From a virus: a DNA stretch of 64,000 nt. The translations under genes were made by a program, and so were the position numbers. The stretch spans positions 5,530-69,529 of the IMG/VR virus record IMGVR_UViG_3300042691_032685. The stretch is one strand, 5' to 3'. The notes beneath the pieces are model-generated. The model saw only the letters and a list, made by a program, of their open reading frames with translations, did not search any database and was not told the origin of the DNA. This document shows positions 32,570 through 62,520 of this stretch, piece after piece (within the stretch, counting starts at the first letter, position 1; each line of letters starts with the position of its first letter).

Positions 32570-32998
32570 TCAGACTCGAATGAGATCTGCTGCAAGAACT
32601 GCGTCCCAATCAACGCGTTTAATTTGTTTCAGTTGTTCGAGATTGTTAAACCTTTCACCCGATAAGGACATTTGAAGATCTTTAATCTCTCGGGCTGTTT
32701 TCAATCCGATACCCTTGATATGATCAGCGATCATTTGGGCAGTAGCCGAATTGATATTTAAACGGTTGTCCGGGGGAAAAGTGCGAGGTTCTTCCTGCGC
32801 CGCTTTATCTTTTACCTGAAGGGTTTGCACCTTCTTGGTAGCTGCTTCATCAGGAGTGAGTTCAGTTCGATAAGCGGTATAAAGGCGACCGTCCTGGTCT
32901 TCAACCATGAACCAATCGCCGTTATCCCATTCGCTAACAACCTTTACTCGTGCACCTGTCTTTTTGTGCTGATAAAGCATTGCTGGAATAGTTGTCAT
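32570..32998 (-). CDS. Helix-hairpin-helix (ComEA/PsbU-like) domain protein
   Basis: LNINSATAQMI..HIKGIGLKTA..I...GERFNNLEQL. Confidence 0.75.
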   Translation of the reverse strand: MTTIPAMLYQHKKTGARVKVVSEWDNGDWFMVEDQDGRLYTAYRTELTPDEAATKKVQTLQVKDKAAQEEPRTFPPDNRLNINSATAQMIADHIKGIGLKTAREIKDLQMSLSGERFNNLEQLKQIKRVDWDAVLAADLIRV

Positions 32999-33033
32999 AG
33001 GACCAGAGATCATCTGGTCCTAGTTTAACTTAC

Positions 33034-41905: not shown

Positions 41906-43432
41906 TCAGTAATCAATATGCAATTGTCCTTTTCTCATTAAACCGGTAATTAACCAGACCAACGCATCAACACAGTCGTCGTGACTACTCACGCCAAAGT
42001 TTGTCATCTCTTCAAACATGGCTGTGAAATTACGATAACGATTAAAGAGAACTTTACGTTCTTCAAATAAACCCATCACACCACGGAAACGTGCGAGCTT
42101 ATCGGAGCGGAAGCCTTTGACTGGATGCCAGATCAAATTCCATAGGCCTTCACCGTTTAGGCAGACGCGCCTGAAGTCTGCTTCAAGGGATGCCTGGTAC
42201 TGAACTGCCTCACTCCAGATATCGCACGTTGAATGGGTTGGATAATACAAGCCGTTTTCATCCTTGCCAAGGATGGACCAGTCATTTAAAAGTTCTTTGA
42301 GTTGATCAAGTTTCTCAAGGTTACCCATGACGCGAATGCGCCTGTAATCAATGATGTGAATCTGATCTCCTATCCTTCCGCCAAGCACCATCACGGTGTA
42401 ATCATTCTTCTCTTTAGTACCAGCAGATAAGTCAACTCCTACTCCAAGAGCATCAAACTCAGTTGAAATTTCTGCTTTAACGATAAGTTCAGGCGCAAGC
42501 GACAACTCGTTTTGCCTGATGACTTGATTCATGTACTGGAAAGAAAAAGCAATCGGTGCCTGCCGTTTCTTTTCCTTGAGGTAATCAAGCGACCACATCT
42601 CAGGCCAATAAGACGTTTCTTCCCCTGTCTTGGGATCATTCAAGATGGCAGAAAGAACAATCTGCTGCCAATTGTTTTGTTCGTTGAACGTTGTTGCATG
42701 AATATCGTCATGCCTGAAGCGAGTACCAAGACAGATAGCCCTGGCGCCTTCAAACATAGTTGGTGCAATAACTGCGTTCCAGTTCTCCTGCATTTGTTTA
42801 CGAATGTCTGGGTTCGCAATATCAGCTGCAGATTTAATTGCGTCATCAATCATGACAAGATGAGAACGCTTGGATGTCACAGAACCTTTAAGGCCTGCAG
42901 CGCACAAAGTAAATTGTTCCTCACCTGTGGTATCAATGCCAGCAAATTTATGGTCAATTGACCAGTACTCATTGCTGGTTACATTTTTTAGCAACCTTAC
43001 CTTGGGAAAGACTTCTTGATACCGTTTGCTTTCAATAATGCGTTTAATTGTTGCTGATTTAGAACGTGCAATATCAACCGTATAAGACAGATAAAGAATC
43101 TGCAGAGGCTTCTGGGCATGTGTATGGATACCAATAGCCCATGCTGTCAATAAACCCAAGACTGTGGACTTTGCCGACCCACGAGGTGCGAGAAGATCAA
43201 CGTTTGGTCCAGCAATCTTAATAAGGCAACTACTATCTTCTTCAGTTACAAAATGCCTATGCCAATGTTTATGATGATTGGCAGGAGGTTTATCCGCCAC
43301 GTATTCACAAAAGAAGCCAAAGTCATCGCGTGCGCGTTGGATGCTTTCGGCGTTCTTTGCTGGACGTAACTGTTGTCTTTGTGCCGCTGCCCTAGCATTA
43401 CGACGGTATGCAAGGTGTTGATAAGCAGGCAC
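41906..43432 (-). CDS. terL: Terminase large subunit
   Basis: APRGSAKST Walker A, VMIDD Walker B, GTRFRHDD, GVDLS, HDDCVDA. Confidence 0.93.
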   Translation of the reverse strand: MPAYQHLAYRRNARAAAQRQQLRPAKNAESIQRARDDFGFFCEYVADKPPANHHKHWHRHFVTEEDSSCLIKIAGPNVDLLAPRGSAKSTVLGLLTAWAIGIHTHAQKPLQILYLSYTVDIARSKSATIKRIIESKRYQEVFPKVRLLKNVTSNEYWSIDHKFAGIDTTGEEQFTLCAAGLKGSVTSKRSHLVMIDDAIKSAADIANPDIRKQMQENWNAVIAPTMFEGARAICLGTRFRHDDIHATTFNEQNNWQQIVLSAILNDPKTGEETSYWPEMWSLDYLKEKKRQAPIAFSFQYMNQVIRQNELSLAPELIVKAEISTEFDALGVGVDLSAGTKEKNDYTVMVLGGRIGDQIHIIDYRRIRVMGNLEKLDQLKELLNDWSILGKDENGLYYPTHSTCDIWSEAVQYQASLEADFRRVCLNGEGLWNLIWHPVKGFRSDKLARFRGVMGLFEERKVLFNRYRNFTAMFEEMTNFGVSSHDDCVDALVWLITGLMRKGQLHIDY

Positions 43433-43462
43433 GGTATTAGGTATTCAATATGTTATTGAATA

Positions 43463-43813
43463 CTACATTACTTTTCGTCGGAACGGGTTTTCTTCTGTTC
43501 CTGGTACTTGCGAGCCTTGTCTAAAGCGGCCTTGCGCTTCTCCTTGTCCGACATCTCGCTGCCGTCCTCGTTCTTGGCCTCCTTCTTCTTGAAGTGCTCC
43601 AGGAGCTCCGGCGGCATTTTGTTCTTGCTCATTTTGTTTCTTATTACGAAGTGCGTTTAATACGCTTGCTCCTTCAGAAGCCGAACCCGCCATCGGCGAT
43701 GCAGAGGGATCAAATCCTTTACGTCGGTTCCTTTGAAGCTGTTGCACCAGCCCCATAAGGCCTCCCGCTAGGCGTTCATCTCCTGCTGGTATTGCCGGTA
43801 GATTAGGATTCAT
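43463..43813 (-). CDS. Hypothetical protein
   Basis: ORF with TAGAGT box upstream. Confidence 0.45.
   Translation of the reverse strand: MNPNLPAIPAGDERLAGGLMGLVQQLQRNRRKGFDPSASPMAGSASEGASVLNALRNKKQNEQEQNAAGAPGALQEEGGQERGRQRDVGQGEAQGRFRQGSQVPGTEENPFRRKVM
43468..43632 (-). CDS. 54-aa charged peptide nested in another frame
   Basis: MSKNKMPPELLEHFKKKEAK...; C/G-ending codon bias. Confidence 0.55.
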   Translation of the reverse strand: MSKNKMPPELLEHFKKKEAKNEDGSEMSDKEKRKAALDKARKYQEQKKTRSDEK

Positions 43814-50289: not shown

Positions 50290-52314
50290 TCAAGAAGTAA
50301 AGCGCCCTTGACGATTAATGCGTTGACGTAAAGGCTGCGAAGAGCCTAACGCAGAAATTTGCCTTTCTTCCATCATTTTATCAAGAAAAGCTTGCGCAGC
50401 TTCTGGACCTTGTTCTTTTTGTAAACGCAATAGTTCAGAAGAAACATTCAGGGATTCTGTTGCTGCTGCTTTGGGTGTTGGTGGCTGGCTTCCATATTTT
50501 TTATAACCGCCGCTAGCTCGCGTTGGTTTTACCATGGCCTCTTCCGTGTATACAAAGCCCTCTGGTGTTTCAGTTTCAGGAGCGTCTAAACCAGGAATAA
50601 ATTTTCTTGGTGTTGTAATACCACGAGTTTCTCCTTCATTTTTAATTTCTTTTGCTGCTTCTACAGCTCCTGCGCCAAACACAGGTGTTCCTGCGCGACC
50701 GCCCGCTTGCTCACCATAAATGCCATAACCAGGGCGACCAATCACACCCCGATAACTTGTTTTAGAGGCTGGAGAAATCATGACGCCTCTACGCACTTGA
50801 CGCGGTTCACCACGCAGTTCACCAGGATCAACTTGTTGCTCTAAGAAACCACCTTGCTCTAAAGACTCAAGTCGACCTGATTTGGAGGACATCTCCTCTG
50901 TGAAACGTTCAGCAGCTGTAATGTCACCATAAGCTTTTAAGCCAGGCTGACTCATTACATCTTCTGGAGAATAAGTTGGCAATAATACTTCAAGAGCTTC
51001 CTGCTGGCTTGGTGTAATTTGAACATTACGGCGTGCACGAGCTTCGTTTAAACCACGCTCCATTGCATTAGCAATCTGCAAGTTTTTGCTAGTTTCGAAT
51101 TCAGTTAACTTTGCAAGTGCAGTTTCGGGAGTTAATGGAACTGCAGGAGAAGCAGGAGTAAAACGAAAACCTTCTGTTAAGCGTCCGGCTGGCAAAGCAG
51201 TGTACCTCGCAGGCAACCCAGCGATGCGACCTTCAACAGGAGTAATTTCTAAGCCTCCACGGCGAACAACGTTTGAAACTCCACCATGGGCTGGAGTAAA
51301 TGTGACAAGATCTTCTGCGCTTGTACCAAGAGCTCCTGGGAAACGGCCAATATTTTGTGGGTCTTCAGCAGATGCTGGATATTTAGCAATTAAAGAAACG
51401 GGCGTAGGCGTTTGATATCTTGAAACTGTTTTTGCACGCTGCTGCAAAAGTGGTCCAGGTGATAGAAATTGTTTTTCAGTAGCAAAGTAAGTTAAATCTG
51501 TTTGATCAACGGGAACACCGTCTGGTGTCATTGATGCAGCAACGTTTGCGCTTCCCGTTTGCCGAGCAACACTATTGACTTCTGCAAGATCCAAGTCTTC
51601 ATTGCGTTGCGTACCACGCATGGTTCGGCCAGTGATTTGATCTTCTCCGGATTCCAGGGCACCAATGGTTTGTGCTACAACGATGGCAGCGTCTTCCTGG
51701 CGTTGTTGCGCAAAATGCAAAAGATCTTGCGTTGCTTGCTCACGACGTGCAGCCGCAACTTCTTTTGAGACCGGACCAAAGCGTTGATAGTTGATATCCT
51801 TGGGATCTGGACGATATTGAGGTAACGTTCCTAAATTGGCAAGGATTTTACTGGTACGAGACGGAGCATTTAATGCTTCCATCTCAAATACCGTAGGCTC
51901 TGGGAATTTTTCTGCTAATTGACGCCCGTACTGCGCCATTGCTTCTGCTTCTGTTGGAATTAAGCTGCGAGGAGCAATTTGAGACGGTGCAGGCTCCGCA
52001 ATTTTTGCAACATTAACGTCACGTACGTCCGCTTTGCTTAAATCAGTGAGGGTAATGCCGCCTTTTCGTCCACCAACTGGAGCTTTGCCACCAAAACCCC
52101 TGCGTGCTGCAAGGCCAAGACCAATTGCTCCTAGGCCCAGGGCTGCAAGACCTGCGATGGTTGGTAAGGAAGAGCTTGATTCCTGTTGACGGAGTTGATT
52201 TTGGCGGAACTCACGCACTTGCGGCGTTAATGCTGCCCTTTCTTCTGGATCTTCTGGGTATGGGATACCAGCAGCTTGGCTATAGGCGGCAAAATCGGCA
52301 GGAGATAACGCCAT
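50290..52314 (-). CDS. Large putative internal virion protein
   Basis: MALSPADFAAYS start, one TM, long low-complexity body. Confidence 0.65.
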   Translation of the reverse strand: MALSPADFAAYSQAAGIPYPEDPEERAALTPQVREFRQNQLRQQESSSSLPTIAGLAALGLGAIGLGLAARRGFGGKAPVGGRKGGITLTDLSKADVRDVNVAKIAEPAPSQIAPRSLIPTEAEAMAQYGRQLAEKFPEPTVFEMEALNAPSRTSKILANLGTLPQYRPDPKDINYQRFGPVSKEVAAARREQATQDLLHFAQQRQEDAAIVVAQTIGALESGEDQITGRTMRGTQRNEDLDLAEVNSVARQTGSANVAASMTPDGVPVDQTDLTYFATEKQFLSPGPLLQQRAKTVSRYQTPTPVSLIAKYPASAEDPQNIGRFPGALGTSAEDLVTFTPAHGGVSNVVRRGGLEITPVEGRIAGLPARYTALPAGRLTEGFRFTPASPAVPLTPETALAKLTEFETSKNLQIANAMERGLNEARARRNVQITPSQQEALEVLLPTYSPEDVMSQPGLKAYGDITAAERFTEEMSSKSGRLESLEQGGFLEQQVDPGELRGEPRQVRRGVMISPASKTSYRGVIGRPGYGIYGEQAGGRAGTPVFGAGAVEAAKEIKNEGETRGITTPRKFIPGLDAPETETPEGFVYTEEAMVKPTRASGGYKKYGSQPPTPKAAATESLNVSSELLRLQKEQGPEAAQAFLDKMMEERQISALGSSQPLRQRINRQGRFTS

Positions 52315-52701: not shown

Positions 52702-53115
52702 GTCTGTTTTCTTGGGCAAAACCCTCGACATACCTACACTTTTTACAAAAGACCGGCCCTATATAGGCCAAAAAAGGGAATAGAATTTGCTGACGCTTCT
52801 CCACCACCCCCCGCGAAGGGGAATGTGTATAGAAAAAAAAGAAAGGAGGGGGTACCCCTATTAAATGAGCTGGAATTTGGAGGAGTATAACACGAACTTA
52901 ACTGAATTTGAGACGAAGATCTTATCAATGTCTCTCTAATTGTTATGATTTCGTGACAAACTCCTCCTATAGTCCGGCATATAAGGGGCAAATCTCCCCG
53001 TCACAATAGGCTTCATGTAAGACAGTAGCTTTGATTAGCTGACGACAGTAGCTCAGTTGTATCACAACAACAGCTCTGACGGAACGAAGCAAGTGCCTTT
53101 GTTTCTACATCAATC

Positions 53116-53142
53116 AACGTCAAGCTGGACGTTAAACGTAGC
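53116..53142 (+). ncRNA. H-type pseudoknot motif, copy 1 (divergent)
   Basis: AACGTC/GACGTT stem, loop GCTG pairs with TAGC after the AAACG linker. Confidence 0.5.
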
Positions 53143-53166
53143 AACGTTACATTCCACTTCAACACC

Positions 53167-53346
53167 ATGAACATTTACTGCACCATCAGCACCACAACAG
53201 CTGTCTACTTCTTCGTGGTTAACCACAACATCAACCTTGCACGTATCACTAAGCAGATCCGTAAGGGTCAGAAGGGATACGACTGCAGCACCACGATGTC
53301 AGTGGATCAAGCACGTAAGTTTGCTAAGCAGCTTCAAGCCAGGTGA
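53167..53346 (+). CDS. Early hypothetical protein, 59 aa
   Basis: Manual ORF MNIYCTIS...QLQAR. Confidence 0.6.
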   Translation: MNIYCTISTTTAVYFFVVNHNINLARITKQIRKGQKGYDCSTTMSVDQARKFAKQLQAR

Positions 53347-53405
53347 GTGATAGCTCCCATGCCAGGTGCAATGCCTGGCTCTGGTTATTGCCACAATCAG
53401 TGGCA
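53337..53405 (+). ncRNA. tRNA-elbow-like three-way junction + hairpin, copy 1
   Basis: AGCCAG/CTGGTT; GAG-TGATAG-CTC; GCCAGG-TGCAATG-CCTGGC; TGCCAC/GTGGCA. Confidence 0.6.
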
Positions 53406-53421
53406 TCTACTTCACACCATC

Positions 53422-53628
53422 ATGACACTACTTGAAATTGCTAACAAGGTTATGGCAAACGATGAGCTTGGTTCCGTGCCTGTGTACGGTGCCGATGCTC
53501 AATGGTTTGTTACCCAGTTCCAGGAGGTGATCAGGCTTTATCCCGAAGCGGAAGCTTGGGATGAACACAAGATTTACACAGCTATGTGTTTTCTTTACCT
53601 CATGGATCCTGAAGATTTCGTTAGCTGA
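53422..53628 (+). CDS. Early hypothetical protein
   Basis: ATG after AC-rich leader. Confidence 0.6.
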   Translation: MTLLEIANKVMANDELGSVPVYGADAQWFVTQFQEVIRLYPEAEAWDEHKIYTAMCFLYLMDPEDFVS

Positions 53629-53692
53629 TCCGTTAAAGCGGGAGGCAGGGTGCAATCCCCTGCCCAGTTATTGCCAGGTCATCAGGCCTGGC
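53622..53692 (+). ncRNA. tRNA-elbow-like three-way junction + hairpin, copy 2
   Basis: TAGCTG/CAGTTA; TCCG-TTAAAG-CGGG; GGCAGGG-TGCAATC-CCCTGCC; GCCAGG/CCTGGC. Confidence 0.6.
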
Positions 53693-53715
53693 TTATCAAT
53701 CACACCATACCAATC

Positions 53716-53895
53716 ATGAACGAGTCAGCATTTGCCGCACTGATTGTTTGGGCTTTCTCTCTTGGCACTGTCCCTCTTGTTGCCATGCATTTCATTGACA
53801 AGGCAACAGCAGATCAGTGCAAGAATCATGAGTGGCCCAAGCATCGTGACCAGATCCACCGTGACTGGTGCATCGGCAACGGCTACAAGATCTGA
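53716..53895 (+). CDS. Early small membrane protein
   Basis: TM then QC..HEWP...DWC. Confidence 0.6.
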   Translation: MNESAFAALIVWAFSLGTVPLVAMHFIDKATADQCKNHEWPKHRDQIHRDWCIGNGYKI

Positions 53896-53919
53896 GTTCA
53901 TTCATTACTATTCATTGCC

Positions 53920-54153
53920 ATGATGATCTATCAACCCAAGTACGAGCATCTGCACAGAGTCGTATGGTACGGAGGTGAGTCCACTCAACTGCACTTCGAG
54001 AAGAAGGTTGCAGGTGAATGGAAGGACATCGACGTACGCACACTCGGCTCTGGGCTACCAGATGGAGTCAAGCAGCTCTATGAAGAGATGCGTGACTATC
54101 TCGACTACTGCATCACACAAGACTACGACTCACTTATCGGTACTATCTTCTGA
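53920..54153 (+). CDS. Early hypothetical protein
   Basis: ORF. Confidence 0.6.
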   Translation: MMIYQPKYEHLHRVVWYGGESTQLHFEKKVAGEWKDIDVRTLGSGLPDGVKQLYEEMRDYLDYCITQDYDSLIGTIF

Positions 54154-54156
54154 ATC

Positions 54157-54363
54157 ATGACTAACAATCACATGTTTGATTCTGTTATTGCCATCACACT
54201 TGGCACAGGACTTGGCATGATTCTTTCTGTCATCGGACAGAAGGCACTTAACAAGCATTACATCAACACATGCCACGACAAACCAGGTCATAACCTGGTA
54301 CTAACACGTGGCTTTCTTGGCGATACCTACTTCTGTATCAACAGTCAGTACATCGTCAAGTAA
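54157..54363 (+). CDS. Early small membrane protein
   Basis: N-terminal TM, Cys pair. Confidence 0.6.
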   Translation: MTNNHMFDSVIAITLGTGLGMILSVIGQKALNKHYINTCHDKPGHNLVLTRGFLGDTYFCINSQYIVK

Positions 54364-54364
54364 G

Positions 54365-54440
54365 ACTCCTGCACTTAACCCTTCCATCTAGTACGTATGT
54401 ACTACGACGGTGGGTTTTCTGCAGGACTCAACATCCTGTA
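54365..54440 (+). ncRNA. Structured intergenic element, family C copy 1
   Basis: Long interrupted hairpin then TGCAGGA-CTCAACA-TCCTGTA. Confidence 0.5.
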
Positions 54441-56968: not shown

Positions 56969-56992
56969 CTGTCACTTCACACCAAACAACTC

Positions 56993-57229
56993 ATGGAACA
57001 AGCCAAGTCCTACCCAACCATTGACTGGAAGAAGAATGAGTACCACCAGCTGAAAGAGGTGGTAAACCTTCTGAAAGCAATCCAAGAACGTGAGAGCAAG
57101 CGTCATGAAATGGATGCACATCTCAACTATCAAACCGCTGATGTCATCACAGAAGTGATTGGCATGCTTGAAGATGAGATCGACTACGATCCAACACCTC
57201 GATACGATCCAAGCCTGGCAGGCATCTAA
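56993..57229 (+). CDS. Early hypothetical protein
   Basis: ATG after AC-rich leader. Confidence 0.6.
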   Translation: MEQAKSYPTIDWKKNEYHQLKEVVNLLKAIQERESKRHEMDAHLNYQTADVITEVIGMLEDEIDYDPTPRYDPSLAGI

Positions 57230-59241: not shown

Positions 59242-59982
59242 ATGAAACTTCCAATGATTGCATTAATCTCATCAGCCCTTGGCATTGGTTCTGCTATTGC
59301 AGTTAACCAAGTCAATAACATGATTGCACATCACAATGAACAACAAGATCACTTGCGTTCATTGATGTATACACAACCATTAGAACAAGGGCCTGGAGAT
59401 GTAGCTCGTGCAATTCCTGATGGGATGCTTCCATTAGATGCCACACCAACTCCTGGTTCACTGCCAGAGCCTGGCTCTGATCGTCCTTTGATTCAACTCA
59501 AGGATGGTGTACCAGTGCCTGTGATCCCTAAACGTCCATCAGCAAAGCTGCTGCTGATTCGCACCAAAGAAACCGTTAAGCAAACCAAAGATCCAATCTG
59601 GAAACTACAGTTGGTTGCTAACGGTCAAGTCCTGGACAGCATGCCTGCTCTAACAGGACGTGCCTCTAAGCAAACGGCGAATCGCAACATTGCTGGCAAC
59701 AAATCACCATTGCCCATTGGTACATACTCCATCGATAGGTACGGCATTGCCCGTGCACCATTTGATGATCCAGAACTTGGCAAAGGATTCTGGGTACCAG
59801 TGATTCCTTTGTTCAATACCAATCGTTCTGCCCTTGGCTTCCACCAAGATCCAAGCTGGGGCAAACTCAACGGTGAGTCCGGTACCAGTGGATGCATTGG
59901 TCTGGAATCACCAGAGGCCACAGCAAAGCTGCTGGAATGGATCAAACATTACAACATTCAATTGTTATCAGTTGAATCGTAA
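59242..59982 (+). CDS. L,D-transpeptidase (YkuD-like)
   Basis: LPIGTYSI, LGFHQD...GTSGCIGL (His/Cys). Confidence 0.8.
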   Translation: MKLPMIALISSALGIGSAIAVNQVNNMIAHHNEQQDHLRSLMYTQPLEQGPGDVARAIPDGMLPLDATPTPGSLPEPGSDRPLIQLKDGVPVPVIPKRPSAKLLLIRTKETVKQTKDPIWKLQLVANGQVLDSMPALTGRASKQTANRNIAGNKSPLPIGTYSIDRYGIARAPFDDPELGKGFWVPVIPLFNTNRSALGFHQDPSWGKLNGESGTSGCIGLESPEATAKLLEWIKHYNIQLLSVES

Positions 59983-60047: not shown

Positions 60048-61754
60048 ATGCATTTCCAACTTCCCTCCAACCTGCAACAAGAACTCCTGGCTTATGACCC
60101 AAAGCTCAAGGCTTTGGCTAAGCAAGCAGAGAACAAGAAGCCTGCGAAGAAAGCCAAGTATCCCCTTGGCAACATCCCTCATCTCATTCCTGAAGATGTC
60201 GTACGCTCTAGCTACCAACAGACTGCAATTGATCACATCAATGCACAGCTAGCACCAGGGCGTTTCCAATTGTTTACCAAGCTTGTGGATGTAGCAACCC
60301 CACAAGCACGCACTGTACCTATTGCTATCCTCTATCACTTCGAGCAATGCTGGTACGCAGCATGGCTACCTCAACGTGGTAAAGACTATCTCTATGGCTA
60401 TGCCTATGCATTTAAAAACACCTCAGCTGCTGCTAAAGCTGTACCTCACAGCATCTGGAACAGTAAAGATCATTGCACTGAACACAACATTGGTCGTGGT
60501 TCACAGGTCTTTACTTACTCAGCAACAGTAACAAAGCAAGACATCATCAATGGCAAAGACGGTCGCAACTGGCGTGCCATGGGTGTTGCTAGTTACTACC
60601 AGAAAGCTCGTGATATTAACGAGGCAATCAATAAATTTGAATCACAGCTGATGACAACTATTCCTCAATGGAGTGACTGTCGCAGCATCTTTGAACGTCT
60701 ACGTTGCAACAATCTTATTGATGCACTTGAAATGCCTGCATTCTTTAGCAAGCCTATACCTGATAAAACCAAGTATCAACTTACTGTTGATAACTTAATT
60801 GCAACATCTAAGCTGCTTAAGAATGACTATGGTTATTCTTCCTACGGTACATGCTTAACTAAGACCGAAGCAATCATTACCACTCCGTATATCAAGAAGC
60901 AGCTTCAAGCAATGCTTGATCGTTCAACTACTGAGTACAACAACCCAGAGAATACACAACGCAAATCTATTAAATACGGCTTCAAGGAATTTGAGCAGAC
61001 ATGTAACTCTATCGAATTTATTACTCGCATCTGGCCTGACTGCCCCGTCGATCACTACCGCACATACTTCGATGAATTGCGTTGCATCAACCTAAATCAC
61101 TTTAGATATGACGAACGTCTAATTGAATGGTTGCGCCAGCACATGCCTGTTGCATCCTTCTTCAATATGCTACGCAAGTTCAATGAAGTAGAACCTCTTT
61201 ATCCTCGTACTTCATTTAGTGACTATGACTATCATGTCAAATCATACTTTGAGATGAATGACACCTTCTCCATGATCATGCGTGTCCTGGAGAGCGGCAA
61301 GGAACTGGAGGCACCCAAGCGTTGGCGTATGCCTGACTTCCATGACTACGTGCAAGCCGAAGCATGGAAGGTAACCAACCGTAAGGAGGCTCTGCACCAG
61401 GATCTGTTCCCTGCTCCGATCAAAGTCAACATCAGCGGCAGTGATTGGACATTCTTCCAGCCAGTCGACACTCATCAGCTGGCACAGTGGGGACAAGCAG
61501 TACGCAACTGTGTTGGCTCTGCATCCAGGTATGCAGAAGACATCAAGAAACGTAAACACTTCATTGTGCTTTGCATGATTGATGGCAAGCCGACCTTCAC
61601 GATCCAGCTGGATGTATCCATGGGTGTCATGAACGTTGTTCAGATCTCAGGTGTTGCCAACCAACGCCTCACTGATGAGCAACGTGAGCAATACTCACAA
61701 GCATTCAAGCAAGCCTTGCAATCTCGTGAAGCTGAGCTAAGCTCTAACAGCTGA
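60048..61754 (+). CDS. PcfJ-domain protein
   Basis: FHD...QLAQWGQAVRNCVG...FTIQL...QISG..N. Confidence 0.75.
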   Translation: MHFQLPSNLQQELLAYDPKLKALAKQAENKKPAKKAKYPLGNIPHLIPEDVVRSSYQQTAIDHINAQLAPGRFQLFTKLVDVATPQARTVPIAILYHFEQCWYAAWLPQRGKDYLYGYAYAFKNTSAAAKAVPHSIWNSKDHCTEHNIGRGSQVFTYSATVTKQDIINGKDGRNWRAMGVASYYQKARDINEAINKFESQLMTTIPQWSDCRSIFERLRCNNLIDALEMPAFFSKPIPDKTKYQLTVDNLIATSKLLKNDYGYSSYGTCLTKTEAIITTPYIKKQLQAMLDRSTTEYNNPENTQRKSIKYGFKEFEQTCNSIEFITRIWPDCPVDHYRTYFDELRCINLNHFRYDERLIEWLRQHMPVASFFNMLRKFNEVEPLYPRTSFSDYDYHVKSYFEMNDTFSMIMRVLESGKELEAPKRWRMPDFHDYVQAEAWKVTNRKEALHQDLFPAPIKVNISGSDWTFFQPVDTHQLAQWGQAVRNCVGSASRYAEDIKKRKHFIVLCMIDGKPTFTIQLDVSMGVMNVVQISGVANQRLTDEQREQYSQAFKQALQSREAELSSNS

Positions 61755-61802: not shown

Positions 61803-62021
61803 ATGAAACACACCGATGAACAGCTACTTGCTATGGCATTAGCTAACCTTGGTGACTACATCCACGACAACTCACCTCAGTACGTATTGATCGAAGACGA
61901 TCCACGCAACGAGGATGACTACGATAGCTGGACTTACGGAATGGAAGTCCTGCCTCATGATCACACTTGGCAGTCAGATGCAATTGACGTAAGTCCAAGT
62001 GATGCAGACGTGACGGAATAG
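61803..62021 (+). CDS. Acidic hypothetical protein
   Basis: ORF; last 18 nt overlap the tRNA. Confidence 0.55.
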   Translation: MKHTDEQLLAMALANLGDYIHDNSPQYVLIEDDPRNEDDYDSWTYGMEVLPHDHTWQSDAIDVSPSDADVTE

Positions 62022-62090
62022 GTATACGTAACGCACTTAAAATGCGTCGGGCATTTGCCCTTGCGGGTTCGACTCCCGCCGTCTGCACCA
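62004..62090 (+). tRNA. trnL: tRNA-Leu(UAA), intronless, CCA encoded
   Basis: GCAGACG/CGTCTGC acceptor, ACGCA-CTTAAAA-TGCGT anticodon arm, long variable arm, GCGGG-TTCGACT-CCCGC. Confidence 0.95.
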
Positions 62091-62110
62091 ACCACACTCA
62101 ATTCAACACC

Positions 62111-62473
62111 ATGCAATTCTTTGCTGCCTTCAAGTCCCTCATCCCTGAGTTTCATGCTTATGCGGATGATGACAACCGCTACAACCTAGGTGCTACCTGG
62201 ACCAGCTCCGATGGTTTGCGTGACTACCACAATCTCGAGATGCGGTACGTCCATAACTCTGAGCGTCTTGCGCTCCAGGGGGAACCGCAACCTGATGGAA
62301 GCTGGCGCTACGTTGAACCCAACGGCGCTGTTCACACCATCTCACCAGAACGTGCTAAGCACTTCATGGAACAGACCAGAGCACACGCCACACTCATGGT
62401 TGGCATGCTCGATAAGCTTCGTGAGTCAGGGGTCCTAGACGAGCCCCTAGACACCACTGCAGAAGCTGCCTAA
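62111..62473 (+). CDS. Hypothetical protein
   Basis: ATG 20 nt after the tRNA CCA. Confidence 0.65.
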   Translation: MQFFAAFKSLIPEFHAYADDDNRYNLGATWTSSDGLRDYHNLEMRYVHNSERLALQGEPQPDGSWRYVEPNGAVHTISPERAKHFMEQTRAHATLMVGMLDKLRESGVLDEPLDTTAEAA

Positions 62474-62491: not shown

Positions 62492-62520
62492 GGCCCCTGC
62501 ATCAGCGGGGGTCTTTTCTT
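62492..62520 (+). terminator. Probable terminator
   Basis: GGCCCCTGC-ATCA-GCGGGGGTC-TTTTCTT. Confidence 0.65.

Follow-up and report, generated by a model that had tools for sequence, protein, structure and literature searches.

The stretch of DNA analysed here, referred to as the window, comprises 64,000 nucleotides (nt) and constitutes most of a 69.5-kb virus record, IMG/VR record IMGVR_UViG_3300042691_032685; all coordinates without a locus name are positions in this window. The window encodes a primase, a large terminase, a major head protein and other phage proteins. Genes lie on the minus strand to the left of about position 52,300, and a block of small plus-strand open reading frames (ORFs) starts at 53,167. 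The first two junctions of this block, 75 and 87 nt long, are occupied by two structured elements, E1 and E2, which belong to a multi-copy family of tRNA-like elements and are not chance folds. Members of this family punctuate runs of small genes in S-EIV1-like freshwater cyanophages. The sole match to the window in a phage collection (blastn, 'distant' mode) is a 52-nt segment of Synechococcus phage S-EIVl, and this match is E2 itself. The block in which the elements lie resembles early, host-takeover genes.

E1 and E2 share one fold, which consists of a closing stem (P1), a small hairpin (P2), a T-arm-like hairpin (P3) and a last hairpin (P4). The parts of the two elements, as read from the sequence and from RNAfold, and the ORFs around them are as follows.

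53337-53405, plus strand: whole element E1 (P1, P2, P3 and P4)
53337-53387, plus strand: tRNA-like core (TLS) of E1, with a discriminator-like A at 53387
53337-53342 and 53381-53386, plus strand: P1 of E1, AGCCAG paired with CTGGTT
53344-53346, plus strand: TGA stop of ORF 53167-53346 (59 amino acids, aa), at the J1/2-P2 boundary of E1
53345-53356, plus strand: P2 of E1, GAGT/GCTC with loop GATA (TGATAG if read as 6 nt)
53361-53379, plus strand: P3 of E1, GCCAGG/CCTGGC, with the T-like loop TGCAATG at 53367-53373
53385-53393, plus strand: bridging word TTATTGCCA of E1
53389-53405, plus strand: P4 of E1, TGCCAC/GTGGCA (UGCCAC-AAUCA-GUGGCA), beginning 2 nt past the 3' strand of P1
53422-53628, plus strand: ORF of 68 aa between E1 and E2, with its ATG 17 nt past P4 of E1 and no Shine-Dalgarno sequence
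53622-53692, plus strand: whole element E2 (P1, P2, P3 and P4)
53622-53670, plus strand: tRNA-like core of E2
53622-53627 and 53665-53670, plus strand: P1 of E2, TAGCTG paired with CAGTTA
53626-53628, plus strand: TGA stop of ORF 53422-53628, at the end of the 5' strand of P1 of E2
53630-53641, plus strand: P2 of E2, CCGT/GCGG
53644-53664, plus strand: P3 of E2, GGCAGGG/CCCTGCC, with the T-like loop TGCAATC at 53651-53657
53668-53676, plus strand: bridging word TTATTGCCA of E2
53673-53692, plus strand: P4 of E2, a longer variant, GCCAGGUC-AUCA-GGCCUGGC
53716-53895, plus strand: ORF of 59 aa with a predicted membrane helix, with its ATG 24 nt past P4 of E2

The minimum-energy fold of E1 and E2 on the plus strand (RNAfold) is a three-way junction plus P4. 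The fold of E2 is more stable than expected (z = -3.6; 0 of 200 shuffled sequences fold as well), and that of E1 alone is weaker and not significant (z = -1.4; 18 of 200). In both elements TTATTGCCA bridges the 3' strand of P1 and P4, and P4 opens with UUGCC. An initial annotation of this stretch had described a closing stem, a short hairpin, a T-arm-like hairpin with loop TGCAAT(G/C) and a last hairpin, with stems that differ between the two elements yet still pair and with the upstream TGA inside each; every one of these features is present in the sequence of E1 and E2. The 68-aa ORF between the elements has a 94%-identical homologue in locus L003. Many plus-strand starts of the window are preceded by a leader with a C/A-rich word (TCACACCAT..., ACCACACTCAA...CACCATG) and without a Shine-Dalgarno sequence, as at 53406-53421, 53693-53715, 56977-56995 and 62091-62110.

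A covarying family in related phages

Two covariance models were used for the search: R1, built from a seed of five E2-type sequences that includes E2 and excludes E1, and R2, built from the TLS alone with E2 in its seed. R1 finds E1, which lies outside its seed, at E 7.9e-11 in 84,933 nt and its seed member E2 at E 4.6e-18; R2 matches E1 at E 1.8e-9 and its seed member E2 at E 1.2e-23. Two unrelated viral records served as a control, and R1 finds no match in one and a best match of E 0.43 in the other. E1 and E2 are the only two R1 copies in the whole 69.5-kb record, and six related whole records hold two to six copies each. At a cut-off of E<=0.01, R1 detects 118 copies, of which 91 are distinct, across 35 loci (339,830 nt in all) of related IMG/VR phage contigs. 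The initial annotation had named a lack of conservation in relatives as a refuting condition, and the outcome is the opposite. The arrays hold up to six copies per locus, about 260-300 nt apart and all on one strand within a locus.

Exact matching to IMG/VR with the pattern GGTGCAATSCC...TTATTGCCA returns seven matches, six of which are complete elements with differing stems that still pair. A 22-nt word of P4 recurs unchanged in 30 further stretches belonging to 27 contigs. An exact search for a 20-nt P4 word in prokaryotes, with one genome taken for each of 185,579 species, yields no match. In Synechococcus phage S-EIVl, an isolate whose host is Synechococcus sp. PCCC-A2c from a high-Arctic lake, two copies, at 43426-43504 and 43720-43798 of KJ410740, flank one small coding sequence (CDS); they are unannotated in the record stretch examined, which carries CDS features only.

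In the family alignment, 93.5% of 1961 cells are paired, compared with 34-50% when the partners are slid, and two-sided changes occur in 18 of 23 pairs, with 0 of 500 shuffles reaching the observed values; because the alignment was fitted to the model and the copies are related, these figures lean towards structure. Even with this bias, the RNA structure is hardly in doubt, given how wide the gap is and how many pair types occur at each position. The pairs of P4 also covary across the family.

A three-way junction followed by a hairpin would also suit an attenuator or a riboswitch, and a consensus scan flags P3 of E1 as terminator-like. The 'tail' after P3, however, is the 3' strand of P1, which pairs upstream and covaries, and P4 is followed by UCUAYU or a similar sequence and not by a U run. 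The combination of a GC-rich hairpin and a U run that marks an intrinsic terminator is therefore absent, P3 of E1 alone being picked up by the loose scan, and the phage has a classical terminator-like site elsewhere (62492-62513). The junctions are 0-4 nt long, leaving little room for a ligand pocket, and no Rfam 15 family, riboswitches included, overlaps any copy examined. It is thus very improbable that the elements are intrinsic terminators, attenuators or riboswitches.

Likeness to the top half of tRNA

The top half of tRNA, with its stack of 12 base pairs (bp) and one discriminator base, is what RNase P, RNase Z and the CCA-adding enzyme measure. It is well supported that each element copies this top half, with an acceptor-like stem and a T arm but no anticodon arm. 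Of 89 distinct copies, 88 were parsed and one was unparsable. Under a parser that maximises pairs, forces a 7-nt loop and mildly prefers a 1-nt tail, P1 and P3 together form a stack of 12 bp in 52 of 88 copies, 13 bp in 20, 11 bp in 14 and 14 bp in 2, and P1 has a tail of exactly one nucleotide in 66 of 88, which is A (57), C (8) or T (1). The split of the stack between P1 and P3 varies (5+7 in 34 copies, 6+6 in 16, 6+7 in 14, 7+5 in 2, and others), and P3 joins the 3' strand of P1 without a spacer in 82 of 88.

The T loops among the distinct copies include TGCAAAC (31), TGCAATG (14), TGCAATC (12), TTCGATT (6), ATCGAAT (6), ATCAAAT (5) and TGCAAGT (4). As read off the loop list, 86 of 88 have C at position 3, a purine at position 4 and A at position 5, and the loop-closing pair is G-C in 84 of the 86 distinct rows with letters. 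Some copies carry GGGGTTCGATTCCCC, and some relatives have the canonical T arm GGGG-TTCGATT-CCCC, others having the loop ATCGAAT or ATCAAAT; the GGTTCGATTCC-type canonical T arm is in the minority (TTCGATT in 6 of 88). A genuine tRNA-Leu(TAA) in the related contig L049 carries the T loop UGCAAGU, indicating that a UGCAA loop works as a T loop in this phage group. For some copies the fold is a four-arm mini-cloverleaf whose acceptor stem has 7 bp.

The loop of P2 changes together with the T loop. Copies with UGC in the T loop have a P2 loop that ends in AAG, UAG or ACG in 61 of 65 cases and GG in none, and copies with UUC have GG in the partner region in 11 of 11 cases from at least four sequence contexts, both counts representing few independent lineages. 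In this count, four copies have no recognisable T loop and 11 ATC-type copies are classed as 'other'. The covariation fits the G18-U55 and G19-C56 contacts of the tRNA elbow, and P2 is predicted to be D-loop-like. The description of E1 and E2 in the initial annotation as tRNA-elbow mimics lacking an anticodon arm is well supported by the canonical T arms of relatives, the stack of 12 +/- 1 bp, the UGCAAGU loop of tRNA-Leu and the covariation between P2 and the T loop.

The elements share with tRNA (RF00005) the 12-bp stack of acceptor stem and T arm, the 7-nt T loop, the G-C closing pair and the single discriminator base, but not the cloverleaf with an anticodon arm that is recognised by tRNA finders. 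ARAGORN calls only the tRNA-Leu at 62004-62090 in the window and neither E1 nor E2; in 27 loci with many copies it calls no copy, and its three calls are tRNA-Leu genes. The Rfam tRNA model has no match at E<=10 over 53000-54400 and none at E<=1 in four loci with 20 copies, and P1 has no conserved G-U pair of the kind that gives the alanine-type G3-U70 identity. The acceptor stem set on a T arm with a 7-nt loop is common to the elements, tRNA and the tRNA-like domain of tmRNA, and the reduced or absent D arm is as in the tmRNA domain; the elements have no anticodon arm, no mRNA-like domain and no free 3' CCA directly after the discriminator.

A tRNA-like fold without an anticodon arm, found in heterogeneous forms with three-way and four-way junctions and in some copies without P2, is what decaying tRNA pseudogenes without a present function could look like. 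Such decay is extremely improbable in view of the compensatory changes, the constant ruler of the stack, the fixed partner P4 and the exact intercistronic placement across 91 distinct copies.

Placement between genes and the downstream P4 module

The copies sit only at stop-to-start junctions and on the coding strand. In 91 of 96 contexts, the longest upstream frame stops no more than 19 nt from where the element starts; the stop codon is TGA in 74 of 88 copies and begins 0-10 nt inside P1 in 69 of 88, and the next ATG is mostly 10-13 nt past the model end. In loci L033-L059, an E1-type element always lies behind the same first gene, whose product ends in ...QAR or ...QTR.

Behind every TLS comes a compact structure, either a hairpin or a pseudoknot, that begins with UUGCC. 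The usual P4 is UGCCAC-N5-6-GUGGCA, with almost no variation in its stem or its loop. An H-type pseudoknot (S1 UGCCY/RGGCA, S2 GCGG/CCGC) takes the place of the P4 hairpin in 13 distinct copies; in this pseudoknot 117 of 117 cells are paired and five of nine pairs are changed on both sides; examples are L013:1720-1747, L014:934-961, L035:10562-10589 and L050:5355-5382, among others. After the hairpin form come a leader that lacks a Shine-Dalgarno sequence and an ATG start; after the pseudoknot form come, mostly, GGAG and a GTG or ATG start. As leader and start differ with the form of this structure, P4 looks like the head of the 5' untranslated region of the downstream gene. R2 finds no further strong copy of a TLS without P4 in five whole records. 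A weak R2 match on the minus strand at 32813-32858 (18.4 bits, E 9e-4; GAAGG-TGCAAAC-CCTTC) lies inside the 147-aa ORF 32570-33013 and is probably due to chance, as no P4 follows it.

A stop inside the element and a next ATG about 17 nt past P4, as in most copies, together with stable folds and hairpin-form leaders that mostly lack a Shine-Dalgarno sequence, would also suit an uncleaved structural spacer in a polycistronic mRNA, which could be a barrier to exonucleases or to RNase E scanning or could couple translation from stop to start. A generic stable fold, however, needs no T-loop consensus, no 12-bp stack of variable split, no zero-nt P3/P1 junction, no discriminator-like A and no elbow covariation, and a plain spacer is therefore unlikely. 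Readthrough or recoding of the stop codon was considered and rejected: of 73 contexts, 23 have the next ATG in frame (23, 24 and 26 for the three remainders), as expected by chance, and 11 have it in frame with an open path. This count leaves aside 25 of 98 contexts, 20 of which have no ATG-started ORF of at least 30 codons (several have GTG) and five of which have the stop outside the element. The window ORFs 53167-53346, 53422-53628 and 53716-53895 share one frame with only two TGAs between them, which is a coincidence by the statistics of the family.

The initial annotation had also offered the elements as decoys for tRNA-targeting defence nucleases. A decoy or sponge could titrate a host tRNA-binding factor, defence nuclease or transferase that reads the acceptor/T half, and the conserved tRNA top half and elbow and the apparently early, host-takeover gene block would suit this role. 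The anticodon arm is the usual cut target of tRNA-cutting defence nucleases, however, and it is absent here; the strict stop-to-start placement and the linked downstream P4 point to a cis-acting mRNA element, and the copy number is as low as two per genome. This part of the initial annotation thus finds no support, and a decoy role is improbable.

In the arrays of related contigs (loci L033-L059), the small ORFs between elements fall into 23 clusters, and from contig to contig individual ORF cassettes are added, missing or substituted, with the change falling precisely between elements; for example, c5, c10, c7 or c4 is inserted in otherwise collinear c3-c0-c2-c1 arrays. A comparable arrangement is reported for PeSL (promoter-early stem-loop) of T4-type phages, a composite intergenic motif repeated between small, variable early ORFs and associated with cassette gain and loss (PMC2839356, PMC4122927). 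The differences by whole cassettes and the identity of the 22-nt P4 word across 30 stretches and 27 contigs could indicate that P4 and the TLS are mainly a recombination site at a DNA-level cassette boundary. The compensatory changes in P1-P3, however, reveal selection on RNA pairing, and no consistent -35/-10 promoter, which is a part of PeSL, is found in or after the element. A boundary of this type as the main role is quite unlikely, but a recombination joint is plausible as a side role, one that may coexist with a role in RNA. PeSL combines a promoter with a terminator-like stem-loop; the elements here have no promoter consensus, and their core is a covarying tRNA-like junction.

A promoter in TTGCCA... 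was likewise rejected. A promoter scan detects nothing within or behind E1 or E2, and thus no sigma-70 early promoter beside the stem-loop, there is no consistent -10 sequence, and the hexamers 15-18 nt past TTGCCA lack, by eye, the A2 and T6 of a -10 box. The length of P4 also varies, so that any fixed promoter spacing would fail.

Another tRNA-shaped unit lies in the same kind of slot further along the strand, between consensus matches to a promoter and a terminator.

62004-62090, plus strand: genuine tRNA-Leu(TAA) with encoded CCA, wedged between two ORFs
52922-52949, plus strand: sigma-70-like promoter match TTATCA-16-TATGAT with TG (extended -10), in the divergent intergenic region (consensus match only)
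62492-62513: terminator-like site with a T-rich tail, after ORF 62111-62473 (consensus match only)

The stop codon (62019-62021) of the conserved 72-aa ORF 61803-62021 lies inside tRNA-Leu, and the next ATG, at 62111, is 21 nt past the tRNA. The overlap of stop and tRNA holds in all three records with a readable upstream ORF (the window, L035 and L051), with the stop at nt 16-18 of the tRNA, or at nt 8-10 in L051, and processing of tRNA-Leu would cut the upstream mRNA before its stop codon. The sites at 52922-52949 and 62492-62513 may bound one long rightward operon that contains E1, E2 and tRNA-Leu. Pfam families with a single member among the 87 ORFs of the window include AdoMet decarboxylase, dCTP deaminase-like, MazE-antitoxin-like, PcfJ-like (ORF 60048-61754), YkuD (ORF 59242-59982), several cell-wall hydrolase domains and HNH.

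Possible processing by host enzymes and known systems

The conserved parts of the elements are those read by tRNA-maturation endonucleases, and the parts that these enzymes ignore are degenerate or missing. No RNA polymerase, RNase, RNA ligase or CCA-adding enzyme is among the Pfam families listed (25 of 27) for the 87 window ORFs, and so host enzymes would have to act. Taken together, these two observations favour host RNase Z and possibly RNase P. It is tentatively proposed, at somewhat less than an even chance, that the elements act in cis to direct processing by RNase Z and RNase P of the host and that P4 caps the mRNA downstream.

In the proposed mechanism, host tRNA-maturation endonucleases would read the top half on the polycistronic transcript, and RNase Z would cut after the discriminator-like A. 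The downstream cistron would then start within 1-2 nt of the P4 hairpin or H-type pseudoknot, which could protect the newly made 5'-monophosphate end against RNase E and RNase J; an RNA that is structured right at its 5' terminus is protected from the 5'-end-dependent action of these two enzymes. A second cut, by RNase P at the 5' border of P1, may also occur; because the stop codon lies inside P1 or J1/2, the upstream message would thereby lose its stop codon, and the upstream ORF would be silenced. A cut by RNase P may act as a shut-off, or it may be blocked while ribosomes keep P1 unfolded.

Several points weigh against this proposal. A cut by RNase P would leave the upstream ORF without a stop in most copies, which looks wasteful unless it is regulatory. 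This objection is softened by tRNA-Leu, which is presumably processed and has the same overlap, and by the plant nad6 and ccmC mRNAs, which end inside their frames at t-elements (PMC1920247). Only 1-2 nt of single strand separate the discriminator-like base from P4, which could hinder an endonuclease. The near-invariant sequence of P4 in most copies, loop included, is unexplained by plain end-protection and may point to a partner that recognises the sequence. The next three junctions of the small-ORF block in the window have no element, and so an element is not needed at every junction. Finally, the preferences of the parser given above bear on the ruler counts, and pairing counts are inflated both by the fitting of the alignments (A4 and A5) to the model structure and by the descent of many copies from common ancestors.

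A wider reading is doubtful as a whole. It would join 'tRNA punctuation' of phage small-gene operons by host RNase Z and RNase P to a 5' protective structure, to delivery of the non-stop upstream mRNA to trans-translation as a translation-sensitive timer of early genes, and to joints for cassette swapping. If the proposal of host processing is true, it would provide a simple rule for the stability and timing of small-gene messages in a phage without its own RNA polymerase or RNases. The 91 distinct variants, with their held stack length, varying split and covarying elbow, form a natural mutational series for how RNase P and RNase Z measure their substrates, and the elements would be candidates for compact processing or insulator modules in cyanobacterial synthetic operons. 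With this family, the published S-EIVl genome and at least 30 environmental phage contigs gain an RNA feature that had not been annotated.

A full-text literature search, which did not extend to the original S-EIV1 genome paper, found no repeated anticodon-less tRNA-like units that punctuate phage gene arrays. A 2023 catalogue reports 8,495 candidate structured RNAs from IMG/VR (PMC10690425), and the motif may already be present there under a bare identifier. Organelles and a few single phage RNAs are known to carry tRNA-like processing signals, and the repeated array in phages would be the new aspect.

Among phages, structured transcript signals for host processing nucleases are also found in T7, P1/P7 and P4. 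The RNase III sites between T7 early genes are long double-stranded hairpins, and the C4 RNA of P1/P7 and the CI RNA of phage P4 are RNase P substrates that imitate tRNA in its acceptor/T part. C4 RNA and CI RNA are regulatory RNAs that occur singly, whereas the elements here are repeated intercistronic units. In eukaryotes, mascRNA and MEN-beta possess a tRNA-like fold at the end of a long transcript, where cuts by RNase P and RNase Z define the flanking ends. These differ from the phage elements in being eukaryotic and single-copy, with an upstream RNA protected by a triple helix and a cloverleaf that has an anticodon-like arm. In animal mitochondria, RNase P and RNase Z recognise tRNA-shaped units that punctuate the polycistronic RNA; these units are functional tRNAs, whereas the phage units, which lack an anticodon arm, cannot decode.

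The closest counterparts are the t-elements of plant mitochondria, at which cleavage by RNase P and RNase Z is proposed, and in part demonstrated, to generate the 5' and 3' ends of mRNAs; some of these ends fall within the reading frame, as in nad6 and ccmC, so that the mRNA lacks its stop codon (PMC1920247). The phage elements likewise have a non-canonical tRNA-like fold with a T arm and lie in mRNA beside a coding region. The t-elements are organellar and occur as scattered single copies, whereas the phage elements form arrays of up to six per locus with a fixed hairpin or pseudoknot partner and a mostly UGCAA T loop, and their cleavage is a proposal. If they are cut by tRNA-processing enzymes, the elements would be a bacterial-virus counterpart of mitochondrial tRNA punctuation and of plant t-elements.

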